Shown: positions 9,116 through 61,702, numbered from the stretch's first letter. The stretch is DNA of 64,000 bases from an uncultured Actinomycetes bacterium (GCA_963848525.1 CAWKDZ010000001.1:374060-438059); one strand, 5' to 3'. Translations and numbers: made by a program. The notes: generated by a model from the letters alone, not told the origin.

Positions 9116-12100
9116 TTAGCCCTCCTCGATCCGAGTCAGCGTTTGGTCGGACGAGCTACCGACCCAGAGGTCGCCGTCGAACGCCAGGGCGAGCGGCGCG
9201 TTCGCTGGCGTCAAGGGCGAGCCGATGACTGCCCCGGTGCCGGCGTCGAGCCGGGTGACGGTTCCGTCGGCGGACGCGACCCAGATGCTGTCCCGCGAGG
9301 CGACGAGGTCCTGGATCTCCTTGCCGAGCGAAATGGGTGCACCCTCGACGCGGCTCGTGCCGGGATCGATTCGCATCAGCGTGCGGGCGGACATGTTGGC
9401 GACCCACACCGCTTCATCCGTGACGGCAAGCGCGGCGGGGCCGTCTCCGACGGACGTCTTCGTCTGCACCGCCCTCGTGCGTGCGTCCACGCGCCACACC
9501 GAGTCATCGCCCCGGTTCGCCACCCAGACGACGTCGTCTCCGATGGCTACGTCGGACGGGTCGCGCCCGACTTCCATCGAAGCCAGGATCCTGTCGGTCG
9601 CCGGATCGACGTGGACGAGGCGGCCAGACCCTCCGGCTTCCGAGGGTGCGACGGCCCAGACGCCCGTCGGGTCTGCCGCGACGGCGGCGGCCAGTGCCAG
9701 CGGGATGTGCTGAACGGCCTCGCCGGTCGTGGCGTCGACGTGGTCGACGCCCCCGAGATCTGGGATCGCCCTCGCGATCCAGACCGCGCTCTGCGTCGCG
9801 GCCAGGTCGGCGTAGTCACCACCGCCGAGGTCGATGCCTGAGGGAAGCTCGTCGACGCTGCCGGAGTCGGCGGCGACGCGAACGAGCGAGCCTCCGCCTT
9901 CGGCAATCGCCCACACGCGACCATCGGCGGCAGCAAGGTGATCCGGGTCCGTAGGGAGCGCGATCGTCTCGCCGACGACGCGCCCCGCTGCATTGGTGAC
10001 GCCGTCGCTTCGTGACGCGATCGCCCACGCAGACAGCCCCACCGCGAGGGCCGCCAGCGCAGCGACGATCGCTGCGGCGACGGCGAGTGTCCGTTGCGAC
10101 CTCCTCTTTCTCCGACCCACGTCGATCGGGGCAGCAGCTCCGGTCGCCACGCTTCGTTCGTCGAGACGCGGACGACGACCGTCGACCACGCCGCCGGCGG
10201 CTCTTGCCAGGTCGCCCGCGGAACGGAATCGCCGCCGCGGATCCTTGTTCATCGCGCGCTCGACCACCGAGTCGAACGATTTCGGGACTCCTTCTGCGCT
10301 CGGGCGCGGCGGAGGCTGGTCGAGGTGCGCGGCCAGGGCCTCTAGCTCGGACCTCACTTCGAACGGCGGATGACCCGTGAGACACTCGTACAGCACCGCG
10401 CCGAGTGCGTAGATGTCTGCGCGAGCGTCGACCGGCTCGCCGCGGATCTGCTCGGGCGCGACGTACGCCAGCGTGCCGACCCACTGCCCCGTCTTCGTCA
10501 GGCCGTCGCCTGCGGCCTCGTTGCGCGTCAGCCCGAAGTCGGTCAGGTACGCCTGCTCGGCTCGGCCGACCTTCGTGATGAGCACGTTGGCCGGCTTCAC
10601 GTCCCGGTGTACGAGACCGCGCACGTGTGCGGCGTCGAGCGCGGCGGCGACCTGCGACACGATCCCGGCGGCCCGATCGGGCGGGAGGCGCCCGTCGCGC
10701 AGGACCGACTGGAGGTCGGCACCTTCGACGAAACGCATGGCGATGAACAGCCGGCCGTTCTCCTCACCCGCCCCGTAGACGGGTACGACGTTCGGATGCT
10801 CGAGCCCTGCCGCGATGCGGGTCTCACGTGCGAACCGCTCGCGAAAGCGCGGGTCTCCAGCGAGGGTGGGGGCAATGACCTTGAGCGCAACTTCGCGGCC
10901 GAGCGCCAGGTCCTCCGCGCGATAGACGACACCCATGCCCCCCCGCCCGGCGACCGCGCGTACCAGGTAGCCACCGATCACGTCACCGGGGACGAGGTCA
11001 GTCCGTGCCGAGCCGGTCTCGGACTTCGCGAGACTTGCCTCGAGGCGCTCGCGCGCCGGTGAGCCGTCGTCGACAAGGGCGGCGGCGCGCGTCAGCAGCG
11101 CCCGCGCGGCCTCTCCGTCTTCGCGTGCGAGTGCCCGCTCCCCCGCGCGCTCGAGATGCTCTGCAGCGCGCGCGGCGATGTCATCCTCGTCTTGGGGGCG
11201 AAGCTCCGCGCGTAGGCGCGCGGCTCGCTCGAAGTGGAAGGCGATCAGCTCGTCGGCGGCGCTCGCACGCTCGAGGATTTCGCCGAGACGCTGGTGGAGG
11301 TCCGCGCGGCGTAACTTCGGTGTCGCTTCGTACACCGCATCGCGAAGCAGCGCGTGCGTGAAGCTGTACGGGCGCGAAGCCGCCGCGAACACGCGAGACA
11401 GCGTCGGCGACACGACGTCTGGCGCCCCGTCGCCACGACCTTCGACAACGAACGACCGGCGCATCAGCAAGCCGAGCGCGGTCTCGGGCGCAGGCGCATC
11501 GGGCCCGAGCGCGGCCAGCGCGGAGTCCCAGAACTCCCGTCCCATCACCGCACCTCGTTCTGCGACCGACCGCTCCGCCGGAGAGAGCCGCTCGACCCGT
11601 GCCTGCAGGACCGCCTCCAGGCCCGGAGGCAGCTGTTCCGGATCCCCACCTTCTCCGAGATGCAGAGCGAGCTGTAGGAGCAGCAGCGGGTTCCCTTCCG
11701 CGTCGAGCACGACGCGTTCCGTGCTGGAGCGGTCGTAGCCCGCCAGCTCGAGCAGCTTTACCGCGTCCTCGCTGGCTATCGGGCGGAGCGCGAAGCGCGC
11801 GTCGGTGCTCCCGGCGGCGAAGCTCGCATGTGTTTCGAAGACGTCAGGCCGGGCGGTCGCGACCACGGCGACGCCGGGGACCGCGGCAACTGCCTCGATG
11901 AGATCGAGTAGGGGACGCTCCGCCCAGTGGACGTCCTCCGCAACCAGGAGGAGCTCATGGCGGCGGCTCAGTGCAGAGAAGAGCCGCTCCGTTGCGTAGC
12001 GAATCTCGCGGGTCGTCGCTGAAGGCCCTGCGCTGCGCCCCGTGGCGAACAGGAGCTGCTCGTACAGCTCTCTTCCGACAGCTCTCTCGACATCGTCGTC

Positions 12101-13072
12101 CCCGACGGCGTCGAGCCAGTCTGCGAGGACTCGGTACGTGATCTCTTCACCGTATGGAGGGCAGCGGCCCCAGAAGACTTGCCGTGTTGCGCGGCCGGCG
12201 ACCTCGAGAAGTAGTCGCGACTTTCCGATCCCGGGCGGCCCGAGCAGCAGACACGCACCGGCTGCCTCGGCCTGCTGCGCGAGCCAGGCTTCGATCTGCG
12301 TGAGCTCGACATCTCGTCCGACCAGCGGGTAGGCACGGGCGCGCGCCGCGCCGAGAGCAACTTCGACGTCCATGTCGACGAGGCGCCACGCCGGCACGAG
12401 CGCCCCTTTGCCCTTGAGCTCGAGCGGCGGAACCGGAGCGCAGACGGCCTCGTCGCCGATCAACTCTCGCGTCGTGGCGCCGATGAGGATCTCGCCCGCA
12501 CCGGCGGCCTGCTCCAAGCGCGCCGCGGTATTGACCGCGTCGCCGGTGACAGCCTGTTGGCCCTGGCTGAGCTCGCCCGCGACGACCGTGCCCGTGTTCA
12601 CGCCGATCCGAACGGCGAGCCGGACGCCCCACTCCGCATCGAGCTCGACGTTGAGCGCTTCTACGCCGGCAACGAGGTCGAGCGCGGCTCGGCAGGCCCG
12701 CTGCGCGTCGTCCTCGTGTGCAATGGGAATCCCGAAGACGCAAAGGACCGCGTCCCCGATGAACTTCTCGATGGTGCCTCGGTGGCGATGGAGGGCGGCC
12801 TCGCAGGTCGCGTAGTAACGAAGCTGGACGCGGCGGAACGCCTCTGGATCCAGCTTTTCCCCGAGCGCGGTCGATCCGACGAGGTCGCAGAAGAGCAGCG
12901 TGACGAGCTTGCGGACCTCGGTCGACGGCGCCGCAGGCAGACGTGCACCGCACTCGGGGCAGAACTTCGCGTTGCGCGGAAGAGGCGTCTCGCAGTCCGG
13001 GCAGGCGACAAGAGCCGGGGCTTCAGGAACGCCCTCGGAAGGCTGAAGATCGATCGCCGCAGTGTCGTCCAC
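9116..13072 (-). CDS. Multidomain signalling protein: Zn-ribbon + class III adenylate/guanylate cyclase + STAND/AAA P-loop ATPase + helical repeats + Ser/Thr protein kinase + TM + beta-propeller
   Basis: 1318 aa. Motifs in order:
- Zn-ribbon: CPDCETPLPRNAKFCPECG.
- Cyclase: LLFCDLVGST...KFIGDAV...GVNTG...VNTAARL.
- Walker A: LLGPPGIGKSRLL.
- Kinase: GRGGMGVVYRA...VALKVI...HRDVKPANVL...DFGL...APE.
- TM: LAVAAAIVAALAALAVGLSAWAIA.
- About 6-7 VW(V/A) blade repeats. Confidence 0.85.
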   Translation of the reverse strand: MDDTAAIDLQPSEGVPEAPALVACPDCETPLPRNAKFCPECGARLPAAPSTEVRKLVTLLFCDLVGSTALGEKLDPEAFRRVQLRYYATCEAALHRHRGTIEKFIGDAVLCVFGIPIAHEDDAQRACRAALDLVAGVEALNVELDAEWGVRLAVRIGVNTGTVVAGELSQGQQAVTGDAVNTAARLEQAAGAGEILIGATTRELIGDEAVCAPVPPLELKGKGALVPAWRLVDMDVEVALGAARARAYPLVGRDVELTQIEAWLAQQAEAAGACLLLGPPGIGKSRLLLEVAGRATRQVFWGRCPPYGEEITYRVLADWLDAVGDDDVERAVGRELYEQLLFATGRSAGPSATTREIRYATERLFSALSRRHELLLVAEDVHWAERPLLDLIEAVAAVPGVAVVATARPDVFETHASFAAGSTDARFALRPIASEDAVKLLELAGYDRSSTERVVLDAEGNPLLLLQLALHLGEGGDPEQLPPGLEAVLQARVERLSPAERSVAERGAVMGREFWDSALAALGPDAPAPETALGLLMRRSFVVEGRGDGAPDVVSPTLSRVFAAASRPYSFTHALLRDAVYEATPKLRRADLHQRLGEILERASAADELIAFHFERAARLRAELRPQDEDDIAARAAEHLERAGERALAREDGEAARALLTRAAALVDDGSPARERLEASLAKSETGSARTDLVPGDVIGGYLVRAVAGRGGMGVVYRAEDLALGREVALKVIAPTLAGDPRFRERFARETRIAAGLEHPNVVPVYGAGEENGRLFIAMRFVEGADLQSVLRDGRLPPDRAAGIVSQVAAALDAAHVRGLVHRDVKPANVLITKVGRAEQAYLTDFGLTRNEAAGDGLTKTGQWVGTLAYVAPEQIRGEPVDARADIYALGAVLYECLTGHPPFEVRSELEALAAHLDQPPPRPSAEGVPKSFDSVVERAMNKDPRRRFRSAGDLARAAGGVVDGRRPRLDERSVATGAAAPIDVGRRKRRSQRTLAVAAAIVAALAALAVGLSAWAIASRSDGVTNAAGRVVGETIALPTDPDHLAAADGRVWAIAEGGGSLVRVAADSGSVDELPSGIDLGGGDYADLAATQSAVWIARAIPDLGGVDHVDATTGEAVQHIPLALAAAVAADPTGVWAVAPSEAGGSGRLVHVDPATDRILASMEVGRDPSDVAIGDDVVWVANRGDDSVWRVDARTRAVQTKTSVGDGPAALAVTDEAVWVANMSARTLMRIDPGTSRVEGAPISLGKEIQDLVASRDSIWVASADGTVTRLDAGTGAVIGSPLTPANAPLALAFDGDLWVGSSSDQTLTRIEEG

Positions 13073-17269: not shown

Positions 17270-17971
17270 ATGGACGCCGTGGCGCTTCCCGCCGGCACAG
17301 TCACGTTCGTCTTCAGTGACGTCGAGGGCTCGACGGAGCTGCTCAAGCGGCTCGGCGATCACTACGCGGAGCTCATCTCCGCTCACAGAAGCATCGTCCG
17401 TGAGACGTTCGGCGCCCACGGAGGCGTCGAAATCGACGCCCAGGGCGACGCGTTCTTCTTCGCCTTCGCCCGCGCGCGCGACGCGGCCACTGCGGCCGTG
17501 GACGCGCAGCGCGCCCATGCGGAGCACTCGTGGCCGGACGGGGAGCACGTCCGTGTGCGCATGGGGCTGCATACGGGCGAGCCGGTCGTCGGTGAGGAGG
17601 GGTATCTCGGGCTCGACGTCGTACGCGCCGCCCGGATCTGCACAGCCGGCAAGGGAGGCCAAGTCCTCGTCTCGGAATCGACGAAGGCGCTCCTCGGACC
17701 CTCCCTCCCAGAGGGCGTCTCGGTGCATCCGATGGGCGAGCGCCGGTTGAAGGACTTGGACGAGCCTGAGCGCGTCTACGAGCTCGTCATCGACGGCATG
17801 GAACAACCCGAGCCGGAGACCGCGCCGCCGGAGGTGGCAGCGGACGTGGATGACGACGTCGACGCCCGCGCCGCCGATCTCGCCAGGCGGTTCTCCAAAG
17901 ACATCAAGGCGAGCGTCCTCCGGTCCCTCGAGCGCAGCCTGGGCGAGCGCGAGCACCGGGGCCCCCGCTAG
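17270..17971 (+). CDS. Stand-alone class III adenylate/guanylate cyclase-domain protein
   Basis: 233 aa: GTVTFVFSDVEGSTELL...VEIDAQGDAFFFAF...VRMGLHTGEP...GLDVVRAARI...RLKDL. This is the cyclase homology domain of the type found at the N-terminus of LuxR/ATPase cyclases, followed by an acidic helical tail. Confidence 0.8.
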   Translation: MDAVALPAGTVTFVFSDVEGSTELLKRLGDHYAELISAHRSIVRETFGAHGGVEIDAQGDAFFFAFARARDAATAAVDAQRAHAEHSWPDGEHVRVRMGLHTGEPVVGEEGYLGLDVVRAARICTAGKGGQVLVSESTKALLGPSLPEGVSVHPMGERRLKDLDEPERVYELVIDGMEQPEPETAPPEVAADVDDDVDARAADLARRFSKDIKASVLRSLERSLGEREHRGPR

Positions 17972-19652: not shown

Positions 19653-19711
19653 GCGGGCAAAGCCCGCCTACGCGGCATCAAGAGACGAGGACCTCGGGCC
19701 GATAAGGCCCT

Positions 19712-28698: not shown

Positions 28699-28882
28699 TG
28701 GCCGGGGTCAGATCATAGGGACGATTTGCAGCGAATTCCCCCGGCGGCGCGCGTTTTCCTCGCTTGAAAAGATAGGCCGAACGGCCCATTGTCCCGGCCC
28801 CGGCCGGGAAGTAGCTTGGTCGGCACTGGGCGATGCGAACCGCGGCCACCTGGCCTTGAGTCCGCGGTGAGCAATCTGAAGA

Positions 28883-42252: not shown

Positions 42253-43073
42253 CTACGACGGGCGGCTCTCACCGAGCACGGCGTCGGACAAGCTCGGCCA
42301 GAGCTTCTTCGCCTCCGCGCTCCACTCGTCGAAGGGCAGGTCGCCGAGGAACCCGAGCGCGAGGCCGGCCTCGGGGTCGACCCAGAGGAACGTGCCGCTC
42401 CCGCCGAAGTGGCCGAATGTCCGCGGCGAGTTGTTCGCGCCGGTCCAGTGCGGTGACTTGCCGTCCCGCAGCTCGAAGCCGAGGCCCCAGTCGTTCGGGT
42501 CCATCCGCCCGAAGTCGGGCAGCACGCCGACGAGCCCCGGGAAGTTGACCATCGTCGCCTCGGCGAGCGTCTCGGGCGCCACGAGCGTCGGCGCGAGCAG
42601 CTCCTTCGCAAGGTCGAGCAGGTCGAGCAGCGTCCCGTAGAGGCCGGTGGCGGGCGAGCCGCGCAGCTCGCCTGTGAACTCGAGCGGCGCGAGCACGGCT
42701 CGGTCAGGTACTCGACGAACGGCATCTCCGCGCGCGACTCGACGTGCTGCGCGAGCACCTCGAAGCCGCCGTTCGAGTAGATGCGGCGCTCCCCCGGCGG
42801 CGCGATCGGCGTCGTCCCGTCGAACGGCAGACCCGACGCGTGCGCGAGCAGGTGGCGCACCGTCGAGCCGGGCGGCCCGGCCGGCTCGTCGAGGTCGACG
42901 ACGCCCTCCTCGGCGGCGACGAGCGTCGCCAGCGCGGTCACGAGCTTCGTGATCGAGGCCCAGGCGAACTCGCGCCCCTCGTTCCCGTGCATCGCGCGGA
43001 CGCCATCGCCGTCCGCGACTCCGACCGCAGTGTGCTCGGGAGGCCACGCGTCCACTCGACTCAGCGCCTCCAC
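42253..43073 (-). pseudogene. Serine beta-lactamase / PBP-like hydrolase, reads as frameshifted near 42697-42701
   Basis: The N-terminal part with the SxxK motif (WASITKLVTALA) ...MPFVEYLTE is in ORF 42240..43073. The continuation AVLAPLEFTGELRGSPATGLYGTLLDLL...HFGGSGTFLWVDPE is in ORF 42253..43110. The junction looks like a 1-nt loss (gag-gcc read as gagcc). Confidence 0.7.
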
Positions 43074-43093
43074 GCGGCGCGATACTACGTCGG

Positions 43094-49479: not shown

Positions 49480-50908
49480 CGCTCGGCGCCGCCCTCTACC
49501 TCGCCGCCGGGGTGCTCGCGCTCTCGCCGGCGCTGCGGCACGCGTCGTCCGACCTGCTCGCGTACGGGACGCCGCGCCCGGGCGGCGTCGTCACGCCGGG
49601 TGACCACCTCCAGACGACGTACAACCTCTGGCTCCCCGGCCACCAGCTCGCGAACGGCCGCGCGCCGTGGCTCGACCCCTACAGCTTCCAGCCCGAGGCC
49701 GAGCCGCGCGTCAACTACCCCGCCTGGCCGTTCGCGGTCGTCTTCTGGCCCCTGCACGCGCTCTTCGGGACGATCGGCGGCTGGAACGCGTTCGCGCTGC
49801 TGACGTACGTCGCCGCCGGCGGGGCGGCAGCCGCGTGGCTGCGCTCGCTGCAGCTGCCGCTCGGCGCGGCGCTCGTCGGCGGGCTCGCGTTCGCGCTCGC
49901 GCCCTACCGGTCGCTCCAGACCTCGGGCGGCCATCTGCTCGGGCCGATCGCTGCGCTCCTTCCCCTCTCGCTCTGGGCGCTGGAGCGGCGGCACGCGTGG
50001 CTCGCGGTGGCCGCGATCGCGTCGATTCCGCTCTCCGGCCAGGTGCACCTCGCCCTTGGCGCGCTCGCGTTCTTCTTCGCGTACGCGGCCGTCCGCCGCC
50101 GCACCGCTCGTCGGTGCGCTCGGCGCGGCGGCCGGCATCACCGCGGGACTGCTCGTCTACGTGACCGAGATCCGCGGCACGGCGGCCGCGTCCGGACGCT
50201 CGTTCGACGAGGTCGAGCGCTACTCGGCGGAGCTGCTCGACTTCGTCACGCGCCACTCGCGGCACGGGTTCGAGACGTTCGTCTTCCTCGGCTGGCTCCT
50301 CCCGGCCCTCGCCGTGGCCGGAGCCGTGCTGCTCTGGCGCCGCGACCGTGGGCTCGCGGCGACGCTGGCGCTCGGCGTGCTCGTCCCGATCGTGCTCGCG
50401 CTCGGCGCGAACACGCCGCTCTACGAGCCGCTCTGGAACGCGGTGCCCGGTCTCGAGGGGACGCGCGTGCCGGCGCGCCTGCTGCCGATCGCGTGCCTCT
50501 GCCTCGCCGCTCTCGCCGCCCATGCGGTCTCGCGCGTCCCGTGGCGCTGGGCGGCGCTCGCGGCGGTCCCGCTCCTCGCACTCGACCTCCGCGTCGACGC
50601 CTACGACCCGATGGGCGGCGACGACGACAACGCCGTCTACGCGCAGCTGCGCGACGCCGGCTCCCGGGCGCCTGCTGGAACGTCCGGTGCACCTCCCCGA
50701 GCTCCAGGAAGGGAGCGTGTACCTCTACTACGCGATCCAAGCGCCGCGCGAGCGGCCGCTCGGCTACTCGACGACGGCCCCGCCCGTCGCCGAGCGCACC
50801 GCCCGCGGGCTGCGCAGCGGCCGGCTCGATCCCTCGACGCTCGGCGTCCGCTGGGTCGTGCGGTTCCGGGACGGCCGCCCCGTCGAGCTTCTCCCTCCGC
50901 AGGGCTAG
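49413..50908 (+). pseudogene. Large polytopic membrane protein (glycosyltransferase-C / YfhO-like appearance), two frameshifts
   Basis: The reading runs in three pieces:
- MALRDWRRPGLRRAARSRSGLVALGAALYLAAGVLAL...ALAFFFAYAAVRR (ORF 49413).
- APLVGALGAAAGITAGLLVYV...AVYAQLRDAG (ORF 50056 frame).
- PGRLLERPVHLPELQEGSVYLYYAIQAPRERPLGY...VELLPPQG* (ORF 50348..50908).
The junctions lie at about 50090-50105 and 50660-50668. The 5' end overlaps the peroxiredoxin gene by 67 nt. Confidence 0.55.
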
Positions 50909-51870
50909 CGCGCGACCACCAGGACGACGTTGCCGACCTTCTGCTGCGTGTCCACGTAGCGGTGTGCCTCGATCACATCCTCGAGCGGATAGGCCCGGTC
51001 GATGACGGCCCGGTACTCGCCGGCCTCGATCAGCCCTTTCAGGAAGAGGACGTCCTGCTTGCGCATGCGAGGCGGCTCGAACACCACCTTCTTGTCGCCG
51101 ACTCGTTTGTGCAAGAGCCACAGGGCAAGGTTCCGGAATCCGTCCGTGGGCAGGTAGAGGCCGCCCGGCTTCAGCGAGCTCTTGCAGCGGCGGAACGAGT
51201 GCTTGCCGACGGCGTCGAAGATGACGTCGTAGGTCTCGCCGTTCTCGGTGAAGTCCTCCTGCAGGTAGTCGATCACGTCGTCGGCGCCGAGCGAGCGAAC
51301 GAGCTCGACGTTCGGCGTGTTGCACACGGCGGTGACATGGGCGCCGAAGTGCTTCGCCAGCTGAACGCCTGCCGTCCCCATCGAGCCGGACGCGCCGTAG
51401 ACGAGGAGCCGCTTGCCTTCGAGTGGAGTCGCGGGCCGCAGGCAGTTCAACGTCAGGAGCGCCCCGTCGCAGACCGCGCCGGCTTCCTCGAAGCTCATCC
51501 CGGCGGGCATGTGCGCGATCGGGAACCTCTCCGGGATGCACATGTGCTCCGCGTGCGCGCCCGTCCTGAGACCCAGGTACGGCAGGGCGCCGAACACCCG
51601 GTCGCCGACCTCGAACTCGGTCACCGCCGCGCCGACCGCCTCGACCTCGCCCGCGAGCTCGTGCCCGAGGATTCTCCGTTTAGGTCGCCGGAACCCCGAC
51701 ATGAACCGGCCGACGAACGGCTCCCCGGACCGAAGATGGGCGTCGGAGCGGGTCACGCCCGACGCGCGGATCCTCACGAGGACCTCGTCGGGCGCCGGGA
51801 CCGGATCGGGGACGTCCTCGATCCGCAGCACGTCCGGTGGTCCGTAGCGGTCGTAGACGACGGCCCTCAT
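50905..51870 (-). CDS. Zn-dependent alcohol dehydrogenase / quinone oxidoreductase (MDR superfamily)
   Basis: ATG 51870: MRAVVYDRYGPPDVLRIEDVPDP.P..DEVLVR......GHE.AGEV.AVG..V..F.VGDRVF...VYGASGSMGTAGVQLAK. Confidence 0.85.
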   Translation of the reverse strand: MRAVVYDRYGPPDVLRIEDVPDPVPAPDEVLVRIRASGVTRSDAHLRSGEPFVGRFMSGFRRPKRRILGHELAGEVEAVGAAVTEFEVGDRVFGALPYLGLRTGAHAEHMCIPERFPIAHMPAGMSFEEAGAVCDGALLTLNCLRPATPLEGKRLLVYGASGSMGTAGVQLAKHFGAHVTAVCNTPNVELVRSLGADDVIDYLQEDFTENGETYDVIFDAVGKHSFRRCKSSLKPGGLYLPTDGFRNLALWLLHKRVGDKKVVFEPPRMRKQDVLFLKGLIEAGEYRAVIDRAYPLEDVIEAHRYVDTQQKVGNVVLVVAR

Positions 51871-52436
51871 CGGACCCCGACGATCACCGCGAGATCCTTG
51901 AACGTCCAGGTCGGTTCGGCCTCGAGCCCGGCTTCGCGCATCCACTCGAGCTGATCGTCGACGCGGTCGGGGAGGTCCAGCTCCCAGTCGATCGGAATCT
52001 GCATGTCCTCTTCGCGCTCCGGCACGACCACGTCGCCGAGCACGAACCTGCCTCCGGGTGCCATGACCTCGGCGACGCGGCGAAAGAGATCCCGCTTGCC
52101 GGCACCGTCGAGATGGTGGACGGCGAGGGCGGAGAAGACGAGCTCGAACGGTCCGGTCGGCAGCGGATCCTCGAGCCGGCTCAGCCGGAGGTCCGCGTCG
52201 GGGAACGTCTCCTTGGCGCGCGCGAGCATCGCCTCGCTCGAATCGATGCCGGTCAACCGCAGCGACGGGTGGTGGTCGAGAATGCGACGAGTCGTCTCGC
52301 CCGTCCCGACGCCGAGCTCGAGCGCAGTCGTCGCCCGGACGTCAGCGGTGGCGGCAGCGACCTGGTCCTGGAACTCGGCATAGGCCGGGATCTCCTCGAG
52401 CATGCCGGGGAGATATGTGTCGGGGTCCCAGGTCAC
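51867..52436 (-). CDS. Class I SAM-dependent methyltransferase
   Basis: GTG 52436 overlaps the stop of the upstream STAND gene (GTGA), and its own stop overlaps the downstream ATG (ATGA). Motif I is ALELGVGTGETTRRIL, followed by ...FELVFSALAVHHL...APGGRFVLGD. Confidence 0.8.
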   Translation of the reverse strand: MTWDPDTYLPGMLEEIPAYAEFQDQVAAATADVRATTALELGVGTGETTRRILDHHPSLRLTGIDSSEAMLARAKETFPDADLRLSRLEDPLPTGPFELVFSALAVHHLDGAGKRDLFRRVAEVMAPGGRFVLGDVVVPEREEDMQIPIDWELDLPDRVDDQLEWMREAGLEAEPTWTFKDLAVIVGVR

Positions 52437-55400
52437 CAGCTCGGCGCGGGAGTAGAGGACTTCGCAAGCCGCGTCGTCTCCTCCGCTCGCCAGCCGAGGC
52501 CCATCCGCTCGAAGCACGCGACGGCCTCACGGACCAGAGTCGCGTCCCTGCGCGACACGCCGAGGGCCCGCAGCGCGAAGGCGCGCGTGTAGCCGTCAGC
52601 CTCGACGTAGAGCGCGGCTTCCTCCTCCAGCCGTTCGATGTCTCCGAGCGCGAGCAACGCATCCAGCCTGGCTGCAGGCCCGTCGATGCCGAACTTGTCG
52701 TCACCGGAGGGCAGCAGGTCGAGGATCCGGCCCATCTCGTCGCGATCTGCGCGCAGGAGCGCGAGCCTGAGCAGCGCCGGCTCGCGCTCGGCCGGAGGCA
52801 TGACGACCGCGGTCGACCTCCCGATCGCCTCCAGGCGCCGCGCACCGCGCTCGTCCCCGAGCTGAGCGAGCCCAAGGGCGGAGACGAGCAGGTTGCGCCA
52901 GTTGAACTGGCACGGAAAATCGTCGTTCGCGGCGGTCACCTCCTCCGCCCGGGAGGCAAGGTCGCGGACGGCGTCCCAGCTGCCGAGAACGCTCTCGACG
53001 GCCAATCGACTGGCCAAGCCGTGGACGCGGTCATGGGGCCCGAGCGAAGCGGTGATCTCCTCGGTGAGCTCGGCCTGCCGGCGGGCACCGCCGAGGTCGC
53101 CCGCTCGCCCGTAGACGAAGACGGCGATGAAGTGCCCGTTGCCGGCGTTGTGGGCGCGACTCAGCCGCTCCGCCACGCGCAGAAGGCGTTCCGACCAGGC
53201 TCGCGCCTCTTCGTAGCGGCGGGCGTGCGTCGCAGCGTCGGCACGCGCTTCCACCGACATCGCGACGAGGGCGTGGTCGCCGACGGTCTCCCCGATCGCC
53301 CGCGCCTCGTCGGCAGCGTCCTCGTTTCCCAACGGCCGCGTCAGCGCCTGCGTCACTTTCGCATAGCCGTAGGCCCGGGAGCCGGGTTCGGACAGCTCGA
53401 GAGCCTTGGTCAGCCACGACTCCGCCGTCTCCAGCGAAGGTGGCTGCCTCCACAGGAACCGGCGAGCGAGGCCGTAGGCGGCGAGGCGCGCGTAGAGCCA
53501 CGCCGTTGTCGGGACGTCCGGACCGAGCTCGAGAGCATTCTCGAGCGACTCGCGGACTCGCTCGGTGTCGAACCGGACGTTCTGGATGTGCGCGCGCTCG
53601 ACATGGAGGTCGATCAGGAGGGGCGCGGCCTCCGCGAGCTCGAGAGCGAGGCTGTTGAGGGCGAGCGCATCGTCGATCTCGAAGCGGTCGGTCGCCAGCT
53701 CCGCCGCCCGCCGCAACCAGCGGATGGCCGACGCCCGCAACGCCTCGTAGCGCTCGGGCTCGTCGCTCCAGGCAAGGTCGGCGTCTTCCGGCCGCGCTGC
53801 GTCCGCGTAGTGGTGTGCCAGCGTTGCCGCGTCCTCGTCTCGCCCACCGCCGCGACCCTCGAGCCAGTCCGCGAATCCGGCGTGCAGGCGGACGCGCTCG
53901 CGTCTCGAGAGCGAGCCCAGCGCCACCTCCCGGGTGAGCGCGTGCTTGATCACCAGCTCGCGGTCCCCTTCGAGGGACGAGCCCGGCCTGCGATGGACGA
54001 AGTCACGCTGCTCGAGGACGGCGAAGTCCGGCTCGTCGCCCACCAGCTCACGGACCGCGCTCGGCCAGAACGTCCTGCCGATGACGGCGGCGGCCTGCAG
54101 CGCCGACCGCTCGGTCGCCGGAAGGGCGTCGATCCTCGCCGCGAGCACGGCCTGAACGGTGTCGGGAAGGTCAACCGCTCGCGGCAGACGCGCGACGTCC
54201 CAGCCGTCGTCCCCCAGCACGCCGTTCGCGATCAGCGTGGCGACGAGCTCCTCGAGAAAGAGGGGATTCCCCTCCGCCTGCGCGAGCGCCTCTCGTACGG
54301 TTGTGGGCGCCTCGCCCGCACCGATGTCGACGAGCCAGCGGTCGACCTCGTCGTCGCTCAGCGGCTCGAGCCAGATCCACTCGGCGGGCACGCGGCCGCG
54401 GCCCCAGGTCGGCGTGCGATCGAGGAGCTCCTGCCTGCCGGTCGCAAGCAGCAGGACGGGCCCAGCGACCTCGCCCAGCGTTCGCTCGAGCAGGTCGAGG
54501 AGGGGCGGCTCCGCCCAGTGGAGATCCTCGACGAGGAGCACCAGCGGCTGCTCGGCGGCGAGCTCCGCCACGAGCTCGACCCAGGTGTCGTGAAGGAAGG
54601 CCCGCGCGTCCATCGGGTGCAGGTCGCCGGCGACGTCGATACCGAGCGTCAGGGCGAGGATCTCCCGACTGCCCAGAAGTGCCAGTGCGCGCTCCGGGGA
54701 GTCGCCGTCGAGGATGCCGAACTGCTCCTTCAGGATCTCGGCGACGGGTGCGTAGGTGCGTGCATGGCCGTATGGCAAGCAGCGGCCTGTGCGGCGCAGG
54801 GCTGTGGGCTGCCTCCGCGCCAAGCGAGGCCCACAACTCGCGAACGATGCGCGTCTTCCCCACGCCGGGCGCCCCGACGATCGTCACGAGCTCGGGCCGG
54901 CGGGAAGTGCGAACTCGCTCGAACGCAGCGTGCAGGCGTCCGAGCTCCTCCTCGCGACCGACGAACGCCGGCGGACGGCCGGGAACGCCCCGGGGGCGCA
55001 TGAGCGTGAGAGCGCGGACGAGCCTGCGGCAAGCCACGCCGCCGGCGATGCCCTTCGCCTCGACTTGCTGGAGCGGGCCGAACTCGAAGGCCCCGGCCGC
55101 CAGAGCCACCGTTCGCTCACCCACGAGGATGGCGCCGGAATCTGCCGCTTGCTCGAGTCTCGCGGCAACATTGACCGCGATCCCCGTCGCGATCGAGCTC
55201 CCTTCGCGGGCGGAGCCGACGACGATCTCGCCGGTGTTGATCCCGATGCGTAGGTCGAGCCCGAGGCCGAGCACCTCCCCTGTGCGGCGCTGCATCGCAA
55301 GTGCCGCGTGCAGCGCTCGCTCGACGTGGTCCTCCAGCGCCTCGGGCACGCCGAAGACGGCCATGACCGCGTCGCCTGCGAACTTCTCGACGGTGCCCCC

Positions 55401-55580
55401 AGCAAGGGAGATCTCGGTCGCCATCGCGTCGTAGAAGCGCGTGAGGAAGGCGCGCATCCGCTCGGGATCCTGCTCGGCGACGCGCTCCGTCGAGCCCGTG
55501 AGGTCGGCGAACACGACGGTGGCGAGCTTCCGCTCGCTGCGCTCGGACTCGCCGTGGTGCCTAGGCGACGTGCCGCTCAC
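52433..55580 (-). pseudogene. Class III cyclase + STAND/AAA ATPase + TPR regulator (no Zn-ribbon), reads as frameshifted near 54800-54815
   Basis: The cyclase and Walker A part (VVFADLTGST...KFAGDAVMAVFG...GINTGE...VNVAARLEQ...IVGAPGVGKTRIVRELWASLGAE) is in ORF 54171..55703. The continuation (ALRRTGRCLPYGHARTYAPVAEILKEQ...LLVEDLHWAEPPLLDLL... plus TPR) is in ORF 52433..54823. The GTG 55580 start is tentative. Confidence 0.75.
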
Positions 55581-55715
55581 CTGCCCAAGGATGGACCTGT
55601 GTGGTCGATCGGGCAAGACGCCCGCCCTACGGGAGCCTCTACATCCCCGTCGCGTGGGAGCCCTTCCGCCCGAGGTACCACGCGAGGTAGCGGACGGACG
55701 CATCGAGCCGACCGA

Positions 55716-58685
55716 TCAGCCGGACATCCGATCGTTCGGCGCCGGTAAGACCTCCGCCCGGGCGAGCGAGTCGATCTGCTCGCGGAGACGGACGACGTAG
55801 GGCAGGCAGCGCTTTCGCTCCCAGACGGCGAGGGAGCGCTCGAGCGCCTCGCGAGCCTCCGCGATCCGGCCTGCGCGCTCGAGCACGGTGGCGAGGTCCT
55901 CGTAGGCCCAGCCCTGAAGCCACGGGTTGTCCGTCTCGGTCACCGCGGCAGCGACGCCTGCACGGGCGAGAGTCTCGGCCCGTTCGAGCTCGCCGCGCGC
56001 GGCGAGGAGGAGCGCCTCGACGGCCGGGCTCAGCGCTCGCGCGACCGGACCGGCCGCGACGGCCTGAGCCTGCCGAAGCTCGGACTCCGCCTCGCCGAAG
56101 CGACCGAGGTGGCAGAGGTCGCGGGCGAGCGGCAGCCGCCACGTTGCGGCCATACCGTCGCTGCCGGGCGGGAGCGCGTCGAGCAGATCCATGTGGTGCC
56201 GGCAGGCGCGCTGCCGGTCACCTTCGATCATCGCGATCGCCGCGAGGTACCCGTCGGCCATCACGCCGCCCGTCACCTCGCGCAGGTGATCCGACCGTGC
56301 CTCGGCGAGCGGCCACGCCTCGTCGAAACGACCGAGCATCGCGAGCAGCACCGCCCGTGCGAGGTCCCCGTCTCCGGGAGGCCGGCCGGGCTCGAGTTCG
56401 TCGAGTATCCGCAACCCCTCGTCCGCCGCGCGCGGGCTGAGGATCGTCGACCAGTCGAGCTCCTGCGTGACGGACGACGCGGAGTCGCCCACGAGGCGAA
56501 AGTAGCGGAGCGCTCGCTCGAAGGCGGCAACGCTCGCATCGTTCTGCATCCGCCAATGCGCGGCATAGGCGATGAGGGACCAAAGGAGCGCGAGCCGCCT
56601 GGGATCAGCCCGCTCCTCCTCGAAGGGAAGCGCTGCGCGGCAGAGCGCCTCCTGCTCGTCGCTCGAGCCGAGCTCGCCGCTGATCACGCGCAGGGTGAGG
56701 GCCATCGCACGCGCCAGCATCGCGCCGGAGCGGTCGCCCGCGGCCTCGGCACGTTCGGCGACGGTGTGCGCTGCCTGCACGGCCGCGCCACCGTCGACCT
56801 CGACGGTGGCCATGGCGGCCTCGAGCTCGAGCACGAGCTCGAGCCGATGCGGGCGCAGGAGCTCGACCGCCCGGGTCAGCAGTGCGAGCGCGGCCCGGCC
56901 GTCGAGGCGGTCTTTCGCGCGCCGGCCGGCGGCGGCGAGCCGCATGGCGGCGCGCTCGGCGAGAGCCGGATCGGGACGGCCGAGGTCGGCGAGGCAGCGG
57001 GCGGCTTGCTCGAGGTGATAACCGACGATCTCGTCGAGCTCGACGAGCGCCTGTCCGTGCTCGCCGAGCCAGTCGGCGAAGCGTTCGTGCAGGTCGGCGC
57101 GGATCGCCTTCGGGAGGGCGTCGTAGGCGGCGTCGCGGATCAGCAGGTGGCGGAAGCGGTAGCCGTCGTCGCCGGGGAGCTGCGCGCGGTCGGGGCGAAT
57201 CAGCTCGTGGCGCACGAGCCCGGCGAGCCGGGTCATGACCTGCGTCTCCCCGGGGGCTAGCGCCTGCACGGCGCCGCGGTGGAAGAGCTCGCCCTCCACC
57301 GCGCCGCGCTCGAGCACCATGCGCTCTGGCTCGTCGAGCTGGTCCAGTCGCGCCGTCAGCAGTGCGTTCAGCGTGGGAGGCACTTCGACCTCCTCGTCCC
57401 CGGCTGCCATCGCGAGCATCTCCGAGATGAAGAGCGGGTTGCCGCCCGCTGCGCGGGCGATCCGCTCGCGCAGGGCCCCCGAGACGGCGTCGCCAATCAG
57501 CGCGCCAGCCTGCTCTGGGGGCAGCGGCTCCAGTCGCAGGGTTCCTCGCCAGCCGGGACGTCGCTCCAGCAGGTCCGGCCGGGCCATGCACAGGAGTAGA
57601 AGTGGCGCGCCGGACGAGAGCAGGGCGGTCGATTCGACCAGATCGAGAAACGTCTGCTCGCCCCACTGGATGTCGTCGAAGACGACCACGAGCGGCGCCT
57701 GCTCCTCGAGCAGCTTCCGGCATGCCCACGCGATCTCGTCGCCGGTCGTCGCGACGTCCGACTCGCCGAGGAGCGAGCGCATCGCCGCGGCCGCGGCCGG
57801 ATCCGACGGCAACGCCGCCAGCCGCTTCACCACTTCGACCACCGGCCAGTAGGTGATCCCCTCCCCGTAGGGCAGGCAGCGGCCCCGCACGACGCGAGCC
57901 TCGACCGCAGCGAGCGCCTCCGCCACCAGCCGCGACTTGCCCACGCCGGCGTCGCCCACCACCGTCACCAGCTCGCAGCGCGCGTGCGCCTGCGCGCGCT
58001 CCCATGCCTCCGAGATCTGCGCGAGCTCCGGCTCGCGCCCGACGAACCGCGTGACGTGGCTGCGCTCCGGGGCGTCCAGCACCGAGAGGAGCCGGTAGGC
58101 CGGCACCGGCTCCGACTTCCCCTTCAGCGCCAGCGGCTCCACCGGCTCTACCACCACCGCGTCTTGCACGAGCGCGTGCGTCGCTTCGCCGATCAGCACC
58201 TCGCCCGGCGCCGCCGACTGCTCGAACCGCGCGGCCACGTTCACCGCATCTCCCGTCGCCAGCCGCTCCTCCGTCCCGGTCACCACTTCGCCGGTGTTCA
58301 CGCCGATGCGGCCGCGAATGCCGAGACCCGGTAACGCGTCGCGCATCTCCACCGCCGCCCGGCAGGCTCGCAGCGCGTCGTCCTCGTGTGCGGCGGGGAC
58401 TCCGAAGACCGCCATCACGGCGTCGCCGATGAACTTCTCCACCGTGCCGCCGTGCGACTCGATGATCACCTTCATGCGCTCGAAGTAGCGCGCGAACAGC
58501 GCCCGCAGCGCCTCCGGATCCGTCTGCTCGCCGAGCTCCGTCGACCCGGTCAGGTCGCAGAACAGCACCGTCACCGTCTTGCGAACCTCGCGCGGAGCCG
58601 CGGTCGTCGTGAGCGCCGCGCCGCAGTCGTTGCAGAAGCGCGCGCCTACCCGGTTGTCCCGTCCGCAACTCGCGCAGATGTTCAC
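55716..58685 (-). CDS. Zn-ribbon + class III cyclase + STAND/AAA ATPase + TPR regulator
   Basis: 989 aa and intact. Motifs in order: CASCGRDNRVGARFCNDCG; VLFCDLTGST...KFIGDAVMAVFG...GVNTGEV...VNVAARFEQ; Walker A VVGDAGVGKSRLV. A C-terminal TPR-like region follows. Confidence 0.9.
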   Translation of the reverse strand: MNICASCGRDNRVGARFCNDCGAALTTTAAPREVRKTVTVLFCDLTGSTELGEQTDPEALRALFARYFERMKVIIESHGGTVEKFIGDAVMAVFGVPAAHEDDALRACRAAVEMRDALPGLGIRGRIGVNTGEVVTGTEERLATGDAVNVAARFEQSAAPGEVLIGEATHALVQDAVVVEPVEPLALKGKSEPVPAYRLLSVLDAPERSHVTRFVGREPELAQISEAWERAQAHARCELVTVVGDAGVGKSRLVAEALAAVEARVVRGRCLPYGEGITYWPVVEVVKRLAALPSDPAAAAAMRSLLGESDVATTGDEIAWACRKLLEEQAPLVVVFDDIQWGEQTFLDLVESTALLSSGAPLLLLCMARPDLLERRPGWRGTLRLEPLPPEQAGALIGDAVSGALRERIARAAGGNPLFISEMLAMAAGDEEVEVPPTLNALLTARLDQLDEPERMVLERGAVEGELFHRGAVQALAPGETQVMTRLAGLVRHELIRPDRAQLPGDDGYRFRHLLIRDAAYDALPKAIRADLHERFADWLGEHGQALVELDEIVGYHLEQAARCLADLGRPDPALAERAAMRLAAAGRRAKDRLDGRAALALLTRAVELLRPHRLELVLELEAAMATVEVDGGAAVQAAHTVAERAEAAGDRSGAMLARAMALTLRVISGELGSSDEQEALCRAALPFEEERADPRRLALLWSLIAYAAHWRMQNDASVAAFERALRYFRLVGDSASSVTQELDWSTILSPRAADEGLRILDELEPGRPPGDGDLARAVLLAMLGRFDEAWPLAEARSDHLREVTGGVMADGYLAAIAMIEGDRQRACRHHMDLLDALPPGSDGMAATWRLPLARDLCHLGRFGEAESELRQAQAVAAGPVARALSPAVEALLLAARGELERAETLARAGVAAAVTETDNPWLQGWAYEDLATVLERAGRIAEAREALERSLAVWERKRCLPYVVRLREQIDSLARAEVLPAPNDRMSG

Positions 58686-58830
58686 AAGTTCAGGCTAAGA
58701 CATCGCGACGCGATCCCAAAGCACGGGGCAAGTCGGGCCAGCAGGAAGAAGACGGCGAGCGGCATTGGCGGGCCACCAGCCTTGCGGGACGGGCCTAGAC
58801 CTTCGCACGCTCGGGTTAGATCATCGGGGC

Positions 58831-58884
58831 ATGCTCAACCCTCCCCGCGGAACCGTGACGTTCCTCTTTAGCTGGTTCTCTTGA
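58831..58884 (+). pseudogene. Possible stub of a cyclase-domain gene (first ~13 codons only)
   Basis: ATG...MLNPPRGTVTFLFSWFS* resembles the start of cyclase domains (compare 17270: ...PAGTVTFVFSDVEGST). The +1 frame continues as LAGSLE (compare D.(E/V)GSTEL). Nothing recognisable follows. Confidence 0.3.
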
Positions 58885-59190
58885 GAACCCATTTCGCAGC
58901 CGGGGGCAGCTAGCGAAGCGACAAAGCTGCGCGAGAGCCGACGGTAACTGGCATGTTCCAAACCCGACCACCCCGGTCGGATCTCGGACCGACCGCGAGC
59001 GTCAGTGCGAGCGACCTGCGGATCGAGGAGCGGGAGCTGAAGGCGGGTCGGCTGAACTAGCGGCGAGTTCGCGCACCGACGCTCGTGCTTCCGCACGCAG
59101 GGCAAAGCTCATTCGGTATGGCGGGAAGCTTGGCCGAAACGTCAGGACGTCATGGTGTTCGGCTCGCCGCCCGGCCCCCAGACCGGGCGA

Positions 59191-60339
59191 TCACAACCCG
59201 CGCCGATATGTCTCGAATGCGTCGTAGAAGGCGTCGACGCTGCGCCCGAACGTCGCGGCGAAAGCGTCCCGCCAGGGCGTACCGCGGCCGAGTGTCTCGA
59301 AGTACGTCAGAAGGTCGCCGCGGTTGCGACCGGTCACGAGGAAATCGACCGCCAACGCGTACATGTCGTACACGCCAGGCGGTCGGCCCCTAAGCACCTC
59401 GAGCGCGCGGAGCGGCGTCGCCGACAGATTCTTTGTCGTTCCTCGCCACCGCGCTCGCACATCCTCGATCCGCATCAGTCCGTTCTCGGCAATCGCCTGG
59501 TAGGCCGTCAATTCCGCAACGCCCTCGCTCAGCCAGCGCGGACCCGCGCGCGGAACGTCGTCGGGCCCACTGTTGAGCGCGCCTTGCCCAGCCAGCTCGT
59601 ACTGGAGTACGTGGACCACCTCGTGAACCGCGACTTTCGTCGCATCCGTCGGAGAATGAACCGCACCTTGAAACCACGGCGGGCCTATCCATATCCTGCG
59701 GTACTCCCCCTCGCCGGTCTGGCCACTCCCCCACAGGCGACGCGCGTTCTCTGGCGAGTTTGGCTTCGTCTGAACGTATGTCGCGATCATCGCCTCGAGG
59801 TCCGTGTGGGCATACACGGTGAACTGGGGCAGTTCCCGTCCGAGCGCCGAACGGATGTAACGGGCCCCGAGATCGAGGCTATCGCGGAGCGCCGCTTGTT
59901 GCGCCGGATTGACCTCTGAGCCGAAGACGTAGGTTGCTGGAGCACCGGGCGCGGGTGGAGGAGGCGGTGGCGGCGTTGGGGGGGACGGAGGCGGTGGAAG
60001 CGGCACCGGCTTCGGACCGCGAACAACCTCGCAGTCCCTGGCGACCGTGTCTCGCACGTCTCTGGTCGCCGTGTCGCGACCCGGCCCGCACCGAAGCGTG
60101 TCCGCACCGATCCCGCCTACGAGACGGTCGTTGCCCGGTCCACCGACGAGCAGGTCGTTGCCGCCAGCGCCGAAGAGCTTGTCGTTGCCACCCTTGCCGT
60201 CGATCTTGTCCGCGCGAGCGCCTCCCCGCAGGGTCTCGTTGCGCGCCGTCCCGTTTATCGTCGCCGCCCAGACGGAGCCGCCTGCTAGCGCGAGAACGGC
60301 GAGTGCAAGTGCCGCAGTCCGGAAGGTGCGTCTCAACAC
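59191..60339 (-). CDS. Secreted protein: RTX-type Ca-binding repeat cassette + poly-Pro linker + putative HExxH metallopeptidase domain
   Basis: The signal peptide is [25 protein letters not shown]. It is followed by ...[47 protein letters not shown] and [26 protein letters not shown]. The C-terminal domain carries [13 protein letters not shown] (HExxH). Confidence 0.8.
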
Positions 60340-60593
60340 AATCCTCCGCGACCCTATGCCCCAAAGTCACGGGTCTCAAGTGTGGGCGATGAGTCTCGTG
60401 CATGGGAAATACGTTCTTGACTGCGGAAGCCACTGCTCACGTCCGTTTCCACCGAGCTATCGAGCGCCGAGCGCTGTGGATGGCCGAGGACGCTGCGCGA
60501 GCTCCCAAATCTGGCCCTCGAGGATGAGCCACCGCATCGCCGCTTTCTCGTACTTCGGCGATCCGCGTTCCGCGTGGAGATGGACGAGCTGCA

Positions 60594-60912
60594 ATGCAAG
60601 AGCGATACCTCGTGGAGGGCACGCCTCGGTTGCGAGAGCCCGAGCGAAACGGCCTCGACGTCTCCGTCGAGCTTGCGGTGGCGTGGGGGAAGATCCACGA
60701 CGCGGCACGTCTCGCTGGGGCGACTTCGCGACTGGAGGAGGAGCTCGGCTCGGCCCCGGGACTCTTACGAGGGAGACTGGTTCGAGCGATCGGTCGAATC
60801 CACTCGCGAGTCGCTCGGCACCGACGCGGACGCGGAGATCCAGCGTGGGCGGGAGCTGTCGCTCGACGAGGCGGCGGCCATCACGCTCGCTGCAACAGCC
60901 GACGCTGACTGA
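60594..60912 (+). pseudogene. Remnant of the C-terminal tail of a TPR/STAND regulator (frameshifted fragment)
   Basis: ...LAVAWGKIHDAARLAGATSRLEEELGSAPG (ORF 60594 frame) joins SYEGDWFERSVESTRESLGTDADAEIQRGRELSLDEAAAITLAAT* (ORF 60574 frame). Together they give the stereotyped AARLLGAA.ALRE..G.....YER.V...R..LG...F......GR.LSL.EA tail of such regulators. No upstream body is present. Confidence 0.4.
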
Positions 60913-60922
60913 CCGGCGGGGC

Positions 60923-61702
60923 CTACATCCCCATTGCGTGGTAGCCGGAGTCGACGTACAGCGTCGTCCCGGTCACGTTGCGCGCGTCGTCCGAGAGCAG
61001 GTACGCCGCCGCCGAGCCGACGTCGTCGGCGCTGATGTGGCGGCGCAGCGGGGCGCGCTCTTCCACGATCGCCTCCATCGTCGGGAAGCCGGCGATCGAA
61101 CGCGCCGCGAGTGTCCGCACGGGTCCGGCGGAGATCGCGTTCACGCGCACGCCCTTCTGCCCGAGGTCCCACGCGAGGTAGCGGACAGACGCGTCGAGTG
61201 TTGCCTTCGCGACGCCCATGACGTTGTAGTGCGGGACCGCCCGCTCGCCTCCGAGGTACGTCATCGTCACGATCGATCCGCCCTCCGGCATCAACGGCTC
61301 GGCGAGCTTCGCGCACGCCACGAGCGAGTACGCGCTGATGTCCAGCGCGAGCCAGAAGCGGTCGCGCGGCGTGTCGATGAAGCGCCCCTCCAGATCCTCG
61401 GCGGCCGCGAAGGCTACCGAGTGGACGAGCAGGTCGAGGCTGCCCTCGAACGTCTCCGCGGACTCCCGGAAGACGCGCTCGAGATCCTCGTCTGCGCGGA
61501 CGTCGCACGCGGTCACGAGCGGGCTCGAGACGCTCTCGGCAAGCTCGCGGACGCCCTTCTCGATCCGCTCGCCCTGGTAGGTGAATGCGAGCCGGGCGCC
61601 CTCGTCCGCGAGCCGCTTCGCGATCGCCCAAGCGATGGAGCGCCGGTTGGCTACCCCGAGCACGAGGCCGGTCTTGCCTTCGAACCTTTGGGCGGACGCC
61701 AC
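60923..61702 (-). CDS. fabI: Enoyl-[acyl-carrier-protein] reductase (NADH), FabI/InhA type
   Basis: GTG 61702: ...LEGKTGLVLGVANRRSIAWAIAKRLADEGA.LAFTYQGER...LVHSVAFA....L.G.F.DT.R..F..A.DISAYSL......M.GGSIV..TY.G.....P.YNVMGVAKA.L...VRYLA..LG..GVRVNAISAGP..TLA. The rest of ORF 60923..63424 is antisense noise. Confidence 0.9.
   Translation of the reverse strand: MASAQRFEGKTGLVLGVANRRSIAWAIAKRLADEGARLAFTYQGERIEKGVRELAESVSSPLVTACDVRADEDLERVFRESAETFEGSLDLLVHSVAFAAAEDLEGRFIDTPRDRFWLALDISAYSLVACAKLAEPLMPEGGSIVTMTYLGGERAVPHYNVMGVAKATLDASVRYLAWDLGQKGVRVNAISAGPVRTLAARSIAGFPTMEAIVEERAPLRRHISADDVGSAAAYLLSDDARNVTGTTLYVDSGYHAMGM

Follow-up and report, generated by a model that had tools for sequence, protein, structure and literature searches.

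In a 64,000-nucleotide stretch of the genome of an uncultured Actinomycetes bacterium (GCA_963848525.1, CAWKDZ010000001.1:374060-438059, or G000:C1:374060-438059 in our numbering; hereafter the window), two genes on the minus strand lie head-to-tail, an upstream copy at 55716..58685 and a downstream copy at 52433..55580. Each encodes a predicted class III nucleotide cyclase joined to an NTPase of the type found in signal transduction ATPases with numerous domains (STAND) and to a tetratricopeptide repeat (TPR) region. We interpret the two genes, with a probability of about 0.7, as old members of a very large protein family in which a class III adenylyl cyclase is combined with a STAND NTPase (AAA_16) and TPRs; in this reading, both are most likely intact, each would encode a cyclic AMP (cAMP) switch gated by its TPR domain, and they occupy a site downstream of fabI that varies among strains of a soil Gaiellaceae. 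The genome comprises 3.35 Mb in six contigs with 71% G+C and is 92% complete, and its near-identical database proteins carry Gaiellaceae or Thermoleophilia names.

Ancestry, domains and predicted fold of the pair

Pairwise alignments of the cyclase-STAND paralogues of the window gave BLASTP E values of 1e-53 to 1e-117 with 32-41% identity over the cyclase and NTPase domains, which upholds the proposal of the first-pass annotation that these copies are paralogous beyond generic domain likeness. The annotation had also described the neighbouring pair as a tandem expansion, and on this point our results disagree. The upstream and downstream copies are 38% identical over their first 660 residues, their TPR parts cannot be aligned, and a maximum-likelihood tree of 32 proteins places them in different, well-supported deep clades. 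The upstream copy is sister to a gene on another contig of the same genome (G000:C2:462188-465133; 73% identity at the protein level and 77.8% at the DNA level), with DNA similarity confined to the gene and about 45 bp upstream of it. The clade of the downstream copy includes G000:C5:346690-349722 (47% identity). Because the neighbours share so little identity, fall into different deep clades and each have closer relatives elsewhere, the pair does not appear to be a tandem duplication; the sequences indicate juxtaposed, anciently diverged paralogues.

Orthologues of the upstream copy are found in soil metagenomes at 85-92%. Its C2 paralogue has an orthologue of its own (84.6%) in another species, the same-genus genome G011. 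That gene, a 73% match, was considered as an orthologue of the window gene and rejected on this account, its flanks being unlike those of the window. When the upstream copy and its C2 paralogue are compared domain by domain, identity is 86% in the cyclase, 82% in the NTPase and 61% in the TPR part; divergence thus appears to be concentrated in the presumed TPR sensor. The sole true tandem duplicate of the family in this genome consists of G000:C1:685106-688298 and 688142-691495 (78% over 402 aa), the first of which is also split by a frame change.

Pfam searches identified Zn_Ribbon_1, Guanylate_cyc, AAA_16 and, weakly, TPR_12 in the upstream copy (P0001, 989 aa, intact). The downstream copy, about 1048 aa if read through, carries Guanylate_cyc and AAA_16 in two frames together with a TPR part and, in agreement with the earlier description, no Zn-ribbon. 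Its nearest subclade and most of its clade likewise have no Zn-ribbon, and because this holds for the closest subclade we do not regard the missing domain as decay. A spacer of 135 bp (55581-55715) separates the two genes, whose head-to-tail arrangement had been recognized correctly. The layout of cyclase, NTPase and TPR that had been proposed as shared is found in four of the five window cyclases, which reside in cyclase-AAA_16 (STAND)-TPR proteins. Besides the pair, these are a third paralogue with the order Zn-ribbon-cyclase-AAA_16-TPR (P0004; 38923..42243, minus strand), convergent with a cyclic nucleotide monophosphate (cNMP)-binding gene that ends at 38926, and a fourth (9116..13072, minus strand), in which Zn-ribbon, cyclase and AAA_16 are combined with a Ser/Thr kinase domain (Pkinase) and a propeller and which has a long branch in the tree. 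Scores against PF00211 are 58-76 bits in the four STAND-linked copies and 48.6 in the stand-alone copy described below (cut-off 21.9), and AAA_16 scores are 60-80 bits (cut-off 32.6). None of the four cyclase-STAND proteins of the window has a GerE/LuxR or other helix-turn-helix (HTH) match in Pfam.

An AlphaFold model of the upstream copy, with a predicted local distance difference test score (pLDDT) of 80, contains a small β-ribbon, a cyclase domain, an α/β NTPase and a long helical-repeat superhelix, the last comprising about 20 paired helices modeled at pLDDT above 90 (residues 530-980). The model cyclase domain superposes on the class IIIb cyclase CyaB (3r5g; TMt 0.82, root-mean-square deviation 2.0), and CyaC and Rv1625c also match. 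A fold search matched the NTPase-TPR part of the model to the STAND-TPR protein PH0952 (6mfv) over 789 columns (E = 2.7e-10); a sequence search of this part against the PDB yielded no match, 6mfv being found by the fold search only.

The residues on which catalysis would depend are conserved. In an alignment of 38 members drawn from both clades, the two metal-binding Asp residues (D44 and D88), the substrate Lys (K84), and Asn and Arg of the transition state (N149 and R153) are invariant, as are the Walker A residues G244, G247, G249 and K250, the Walker B residue D338, the G415-N416-P417 motif and H513. The downstream copy keeps these residues (FADLTGST, KFAGDAV, VNVAAR).

The logic of autoinhibition and oligomerization that we apply to these proteins is taken from 6MFV and the MalT literature. 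In such a scheme, the C-terminal TPR superhelix would keep the NTPase autoinhibited and ADP-bound until a ligand or partner protein binds. Nucleotide exchange would then permit the STAND module to oligomerize, and oligomerization would pair the N-terminal cyclase domains into the dimers that class III cyclases need. The resulting cAMP could be read by the 13 cNMP-binding domains or proteins that the genome encodes. Because the cyclase and switch domains are similar and it is mainly the TPR sensor that differs, each paralogue probably reports a different cue.

Several points weigh against this interpretation. TPR_12 matches reach 23-26 bits, under the gathering cut-off of 30.1, and the assignment of the repeats rests on the structure model. 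Compared with CyaB, the region of the dimer arm lacks 3+3 residues, and the second substrate-specifying position falls in an alignment gap; Thr/Ser near this position is not conserved at 90%. Catalytic residues, which had been put forward as a guide to substrate specificity, therefore inform in part: the purine-type Lys is conserved, and adenine specificity is read from this Lys only, because the shortened arm leaves the second position in the gap. The activation mechanism is borrowed by analogy from MalT-type STAND proteins. Lastly, a search of the literature found no biochemically studied HTH-less cyclase-STAND-TPR protein, returning only the mycobacterial Mclx proteins and unrelated STAND papers.

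Linked genes and a frameshift in the downstream copy

Two genes follow the downstream copy on the minus strand. The first encodes a class I S-adenosylmethionine-dependent methyltransferase of 189 aa (51867..52436; Pfam Methyltransf_25/11/12) and the second a quinone-reductase-like oxidoreductase of the medium-chain dehydrogenase/reductase family of 321 aa (50905..51870; Pfam ADH_N and ADH_zinc_N_2, with NCBIfam quinone_pig3 below cut-off). Translations confirm the overlaps that had been noted among the three genes: the GTG start of the methyltransferase lies over the stop codon of the cyclase-STAND gene (GTGA, 52433-52436), and the methyltransferase and reductase genes overlap by ATGA (51867-51870). 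Given this tight packing, co-transcription is plausible, and the methyltransferase and reductase genes are probably co-transcribed with the cyclase-STAND gene in this species. A promoter and terminator scan of 50.5-59.3 kb found none, with a consensus that is ill-suited to an actinobacterium of 71% G+C.

One could go further and suppose that the three genes form an operon in which the downstream protein serves as dedicated regulator or sensor, and the two enzymes modify a small molecule that it senses or controls. The 4-bp start/stop overlaps are consistent with such a role, as is the sister strain represented by contig L047, where all three genes recur with their order unchanged. In addition, the NCBIfam models TOMM_kin_cyc, mod_pep_cyc and HaaT tie related cyclase/TPR proteins to peptide-modification clusters, all with scores far below cut-off. 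We nevertheless consider a dedicated regulator unlikely. The overlap differs even between the two strains, as a 3-nt indel in L047 abolishes the GTGA. Orthologues of the downstream copy at 79-83% precede other genes, namely those for an unknown 211-aa protein, a cupin and a CRP-like regulator. Methyltransferase homologues were detected in only 2 of 40 related genomes, with neither the reductase nor a cyclase gene alongside, and reductase homologues in relatives (59-71%) stand alone or beside other reductases, never next to a cyclase-STAND gene. Moreover, the cyclase-STAND protein has no DNA-binding domain in Pfam. The two enzymes thus do not appear to be conserved functional partners of the cyclase-STAND protein, and the linkage seems to be species-specific; the operon that had been suggested as a functional unit is confined to this strain and its sister.

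The deposited sequence of the downstream copy is frameshifted just after the Walker A motif, as had been reported. The site, 16 residues past GK(S/T), was located by three-frame reading, homologue spacing and alignment to L047: the run CCC at 54806..54808 (minus strand) contains one extra C and reads CC in the sister strain. Skipping one base in this run gives GVGKTRIVRELWASLGAEAATALRRTGRCLPYG, with spacing exactly as in homologues, and no stop interrupts the 817 codons beyond the shift, which can be aligned with homologues over their full length. L047, a contig from a 97.2%-identical strain (ENA ERZ25039531), does not have the extra C and carries a different 1-bp indel 200 nt downstream, such that the window assembly and L047 each read through the other's break. 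L048, a MEGAHIT-style, short-read-style contig, contains an intact 1046-aa orthologue (83% by tblastn) without the extra C, and an intact 1025-aa orthologue (P0130) comes from another metagenome.

Small indels of this kind are found throughout the assembly. In the 16.5 kb aligned between L047 and the window (42436-64000), 30 of 31 indels are 1-2 bp in length and not multiples of three, and they fall in almost entirely coding sequence, affecting neighbouring genes alike. At G000:C5:336567-341459 and G000:C2:1015723-1016392, ordinary genes of 691, 767 and 231 aa, each unbroken in two other species of the genus, are distributed here over two to four reading frames. Because the extra C is absent from both L047 and L048, 1-bp indels occur assembly-wide and ordinary genes are split too, the frameshift is very probably a one-base assembly error, and both head-to-tail genes are most likely intact in the organism. 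Programmed frameshifting was also considered and was rejected, since the site shows neither a slippery nor a prfB-like context and the orthologous genes read in frame.

The broken copy had been taken as a gene death, which would mean that a true pseudogene, inactivated not long ago, stands next to an intact copy and a remnant, as expected under birth-and-death evolution. The frameshift does stand in the deposited sequence, the sister-strain orthologue is frameshifted too, at another site, and 150 bp separate the upstream copy from a true remnant of a third gene. Experience in Mycobacterium tuberculosis also speaks against intactness: its cyclase-ATPase genes have repeatedly been pseudogenized by indels, and frameshift pseudogenes are known among its Mclx genes (PMC4452763). 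We still find a pseudogene quite unlikely, as the two strains are broken at different positions and each reads through the site of the other, no further decay is seen in 817 codons, the density of 1-bp indels is equal in all neighbouring genes and in unrelated genes elsewhere, and the short-read-style orthologue is intact.

In 42436-64000, the window assembly (or both assemblies) contains about one erroneous indel for every kb. Frameshifts in this genome are therefore not readable as pseudogenes, a caution that applies to this long-read-style assembly as a whole. Within the same region, a GCS2 ligase and a RidA-like protein form one 571-codon frame (42953-44668); they are called as separate adjacent genes in L045:21093-22510 and L047:19901-21474.

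Strain differences next to fabI

The conserved anchor of the locus is a gene for a FabI-like enoyl-acyl carrier protein reductase (60923..61702, minus strand), whose best NCBIfam matches are all FabI (338.6 bits against a cut-off of 370). L047 aligns to the window at 64000-60650 and 55620-42436, and the strains differ in between. Here, L047 holds an intact gene of the GTVTFLF type encoding an 835-aa cyclase-NB-ARC-HTH_77-TPR protein, of which the window has only the head and the tail. The head is a 5' stub (58795..58868, plus strand) that consists of the first 12-13 codons and 36 nt upstream and is 98.6% identical over 74 nt to L047:8766-8839; its peptide PRGTVTFLFS otherwise occurs only in real cyclase genes of this genome. 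The tail is a 259-bp remnant of the 3' end (60650..60908, plus strand) with 90% identity to L047:6300-6557, corresponding by tblastn to residues 750-822 in two frames. The interior of the dead gene is replaced by a 1.78-kb segment (58869-60649) that has no counterpart in L047 and contains the gene for an RTX-repeat protein (59191..60339, minus strand; Pfam HemolysinCabind). The upstream copy, a segment of about 3.17 kb, is wholly absent from L047, and 112 bp unique to L047 have no match anywhere searched. At least six class III cyclase domains had been counted in the 64 kb; five of them are confirmed by Pfam and a genome scan, whereas the sixth, a stub placed at 58831, is the 74-bp remnant described here and contains no domain.

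The history of the site is partly recorded in the spacer upstream of the downstream copy, which contains a degenerate relic of the fabI 3' end (55639..55700, minus strand; upstream limit approximate) encoding GSHATGM followed by a stop. The relic forms a direct repeat (D5) with 60923-60946 and lies 5.3 kb from the real fabI end. The spacer that follows it aligns to the fabI end and spacer of L048, a contig in which the orthologue of the downstream copy comes immediately after fabI. In the simplest reading of these alignments, the downstream copy originally came straight after fabI, and the genes now between them arrived afterwards; the duplicated relic suggests that about 5 kb of cyclase-STAND genes inserted where a housekeeping gene ends. 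No tRNA fragments or long repeats were found at the insertion borders, the fabI 3' relic being the only telling repeat.

FabI orthologues (78-99.6%) directly precede genes of the P0001 type in L045 and L046 and of the other type in L048, and two further contigs have the other type after fabI, as judged from adh_short gene calls at that position. A general rule that fabI is followed by a cyclase-STAND gene was considered and rejected: this is mostly not so in 30 representative relatives, two of which have a convergent cyclase domain there. Occupancy of the fabI-adjacent site thus appears to be patchy. Gain and loss of cyclase-STAND genes at this locus between close strains is real, because what is left of a third gene stands alongside intact copies and strains that are 97% identical differ in gene content. 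Of the birth-and-death evolution that had been proposed for these genes, the remnant and the strain-level gain and loss remain; the broken copy is attributed to assembly error, and the pair are not tandem duplicates.

A separate observation concerns L046:8327-12732 in a metagenome contig: the genes that come after the orthologue of the upstream copy (88%) encode, first, a fusion of response regulator and cyclase and, second, a histidine kinase with GAF and PAS domains. This kinase resembles the GAFx4-PAS kinase at 25369-28707 of the window.

Cyclase complement of the genome and comparison with known systems

A whole-genome scan with PF00211 found 37-38 cyclase domains in 3.35 Mb, or about 11 per Mb. 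The cyclase load of this genome is unusually high: same-genus relatives have 7-29 cyclase domains and two sister families of the order have 0-4, in line with the family expansion that had been proposed. Exactly five of the matches lie inside the window. Because the genome-wide density is already high, this number is not above chance (P = 0.125). Adjacent cyclase pairs (≤5 kb apart) are enriched genome-wide, with 7 observed against 1.9 expected (P = 0.0016). The cNMP-binding protein and GAF proteins that had been listed for the window were recovered by domain search, the former at about 38555-38926 and the latter at 19706-20197 and 25369-28707.

Three cyclase genes of the genome each have a small cNMP-binding gene in convergent orientation no more than about 250 bp away (38555-38926 with 38923-42243 in the window, G000:C1:691732-691968 with 688142-691495, and G000:C2:218409-218651 with 216997-218343). 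The closest paralogue of P0004, G000:C1:688142-691495, thus likewise has a convergent cNMP-binding gene. We regard the cyclase/cNMP-receptor pair as recurring because two of the three cyclase genes are mutual closest paralogues.

The stand-alone cyclase of the window (17270..17971, plus strand; identified by Pfam) is of a non-canonical GTVTF type. It has Asp at the substrate-Lys position and Arg at the transition-state-Asn position, departing from the canonical residue set, and is 58% identical to the cyclase domain of the GTVTF-type protein of L047. It belongs to a second cyclase subtype beginning with GTVTFLF(T/S)D(I/V)EGS, which includes about ten other genes of this genome (for example, C2:465258-467891, C5:93586-96054 and C5:427242-430679), with or without a STAND-TPR body. 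In this subtype, His or Arg replaces the transition-state Asn (VHRAAR) and the substrate Lys is gone; judging from these replacements, the domains may be inactive or non-canonical cyclases.

Among studied proteins, the nearest relatives are those of the Mclx group of M. tuberculosis (Rv0386, Rv1358 and Rv2488c). Like the window genes, these proteins have an N-terminal class III cyclase followed by a STAND-type ATPase (NB-ARC), are present in multiple copies in an actinobacterium and include copies without canonical catalytic residues, as does the GTVTF type here. Rv0386 is an active adenylyl cyclase (PMC4452763, introduction). Mclx proteins end in a LuxR HTH, whereas the window proteins have no DNA-binding domain and end in a TPR superhelix instead. 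Most copies also differ from Mclx in having an N-terminal Zn-ribbon; the canonical substrate Lys is conserved, and the window cyclase domain, unlike that of Mclx, is closest by sequence and fold to class IIIb CyaB and CyaC.

STAND proteins of the MalT clade with a TPR sensor, such as Pyrococcus PH0952 (6MFV), resemble the window proteins in their NTPase-helical-TPR body, and Walker A/B, GxP and His are present here; they differ in that the window effector is a nucleotide cyclase and not a DNA-binding domain, and no solved STAND protein is matched at the sequence level. The cyclase-AAA-TPR part of the window proteins also aligns to positions 261-896 of TIGR03903, the model for kinase/cyclase fusions of thiazole/oxazole-modified microcin (TOMM) systems. 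Scores are 173-198 bits against a cut-off of 705.75, however, the N-terminal kinase is missing and there are no TOMM genes nearby. With the Pycsar cyclase PycC, the window cyclases share a homologous class III-type fold (PADLOC E values down to 1.9e-17); they differ from it in being fused to STAND-TPR, in conserving the purine-type Lys and in the absence of a neighbouring killing effector that binds cNMP. Beside the pair lie the methyltransferase, reductase and RTX protein genes, and the sole cNMP-binding gene of the window is convergent to another paralogue (38923-42243) and has no effector domain.

These likenesses raise a role in defence, in which cyclase-STAND-TPR genes would encode sensors of phage or non-self resembling nucleotide-binding leucine-rich repeat receptors (NLRs) and sounding a Pycsar-like cyclic-nucleotide alarm. 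Although the STAND-TPR architecture recalls Avs-type defence proteins, genes are present, absent or replaced between strains at one locus, the TPR part diverges faster than the rest of the protein, cNMP-binding genes are convergent to three cyclase genes and the cyclase domains match PycC models in PADLOC (E = 1e-14 to 1e-17), we judge this very unlikely, because the PycC matches reflect ordinary class III domain similarity and the NTPase and TPR parts match no PADLOC model, nothing next to these genes encodes an effector that would kill through a membrane or TIR domain, the flanks are free of phage and mobile-element genes, the paralogues are old with stable orthologues at 85-92%, and at least 25 such genes per 3.3-Mb genome, beside housekeeping genes, resemble ordinary signal transduction. 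With the same very low probability, soil Gaiellaceae would possess an NLR-like repertoire of at least 25 cyclase-STAND-TPR receptors with diversifying sensor arms, swapped between strains at fixed sites such as the fabI 3' end, and each receptor would turn recognition of its own foreign or environmental cue into a cyclic-nucleotide pulse sensed by small cNMP-binding proteins, the genes for which lie convergent to some of the receptor genes. If true, this would be a cyclic-nucleotide-based surveillance system and not routine signal transduction.

We return to the interpretation of the pair as members of a signalling family. Database proteins named 'class 3 adenylate cyclase/tetratricopeptide (TPR) repeat protein' (more than 8000 matches) or 'adenylate/guanylate cyclase domain-containing protein' have the same full-length architecture and length as the window genes; they span Gaiellaceae, Thermoleophilia, Chloroflexota and Actinomycetota. 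Identities of the matches are 72-92% for the upstream copy and 52-97% for the downstream copy. The window genes are members of this abundant, annotated and uncharacterized family. What the window adds is the side-by-side placement of two deep paralogues and the strain-level turnover beside fabI. Cyclase-STAND-TPR proteins are among the commonest large signalling proteins in soil Actinomycetota and Chloroflexota, and the clean comparison of two strains, with one gene present or absent and another destroyed, is useful for questions of repertoire turnover.

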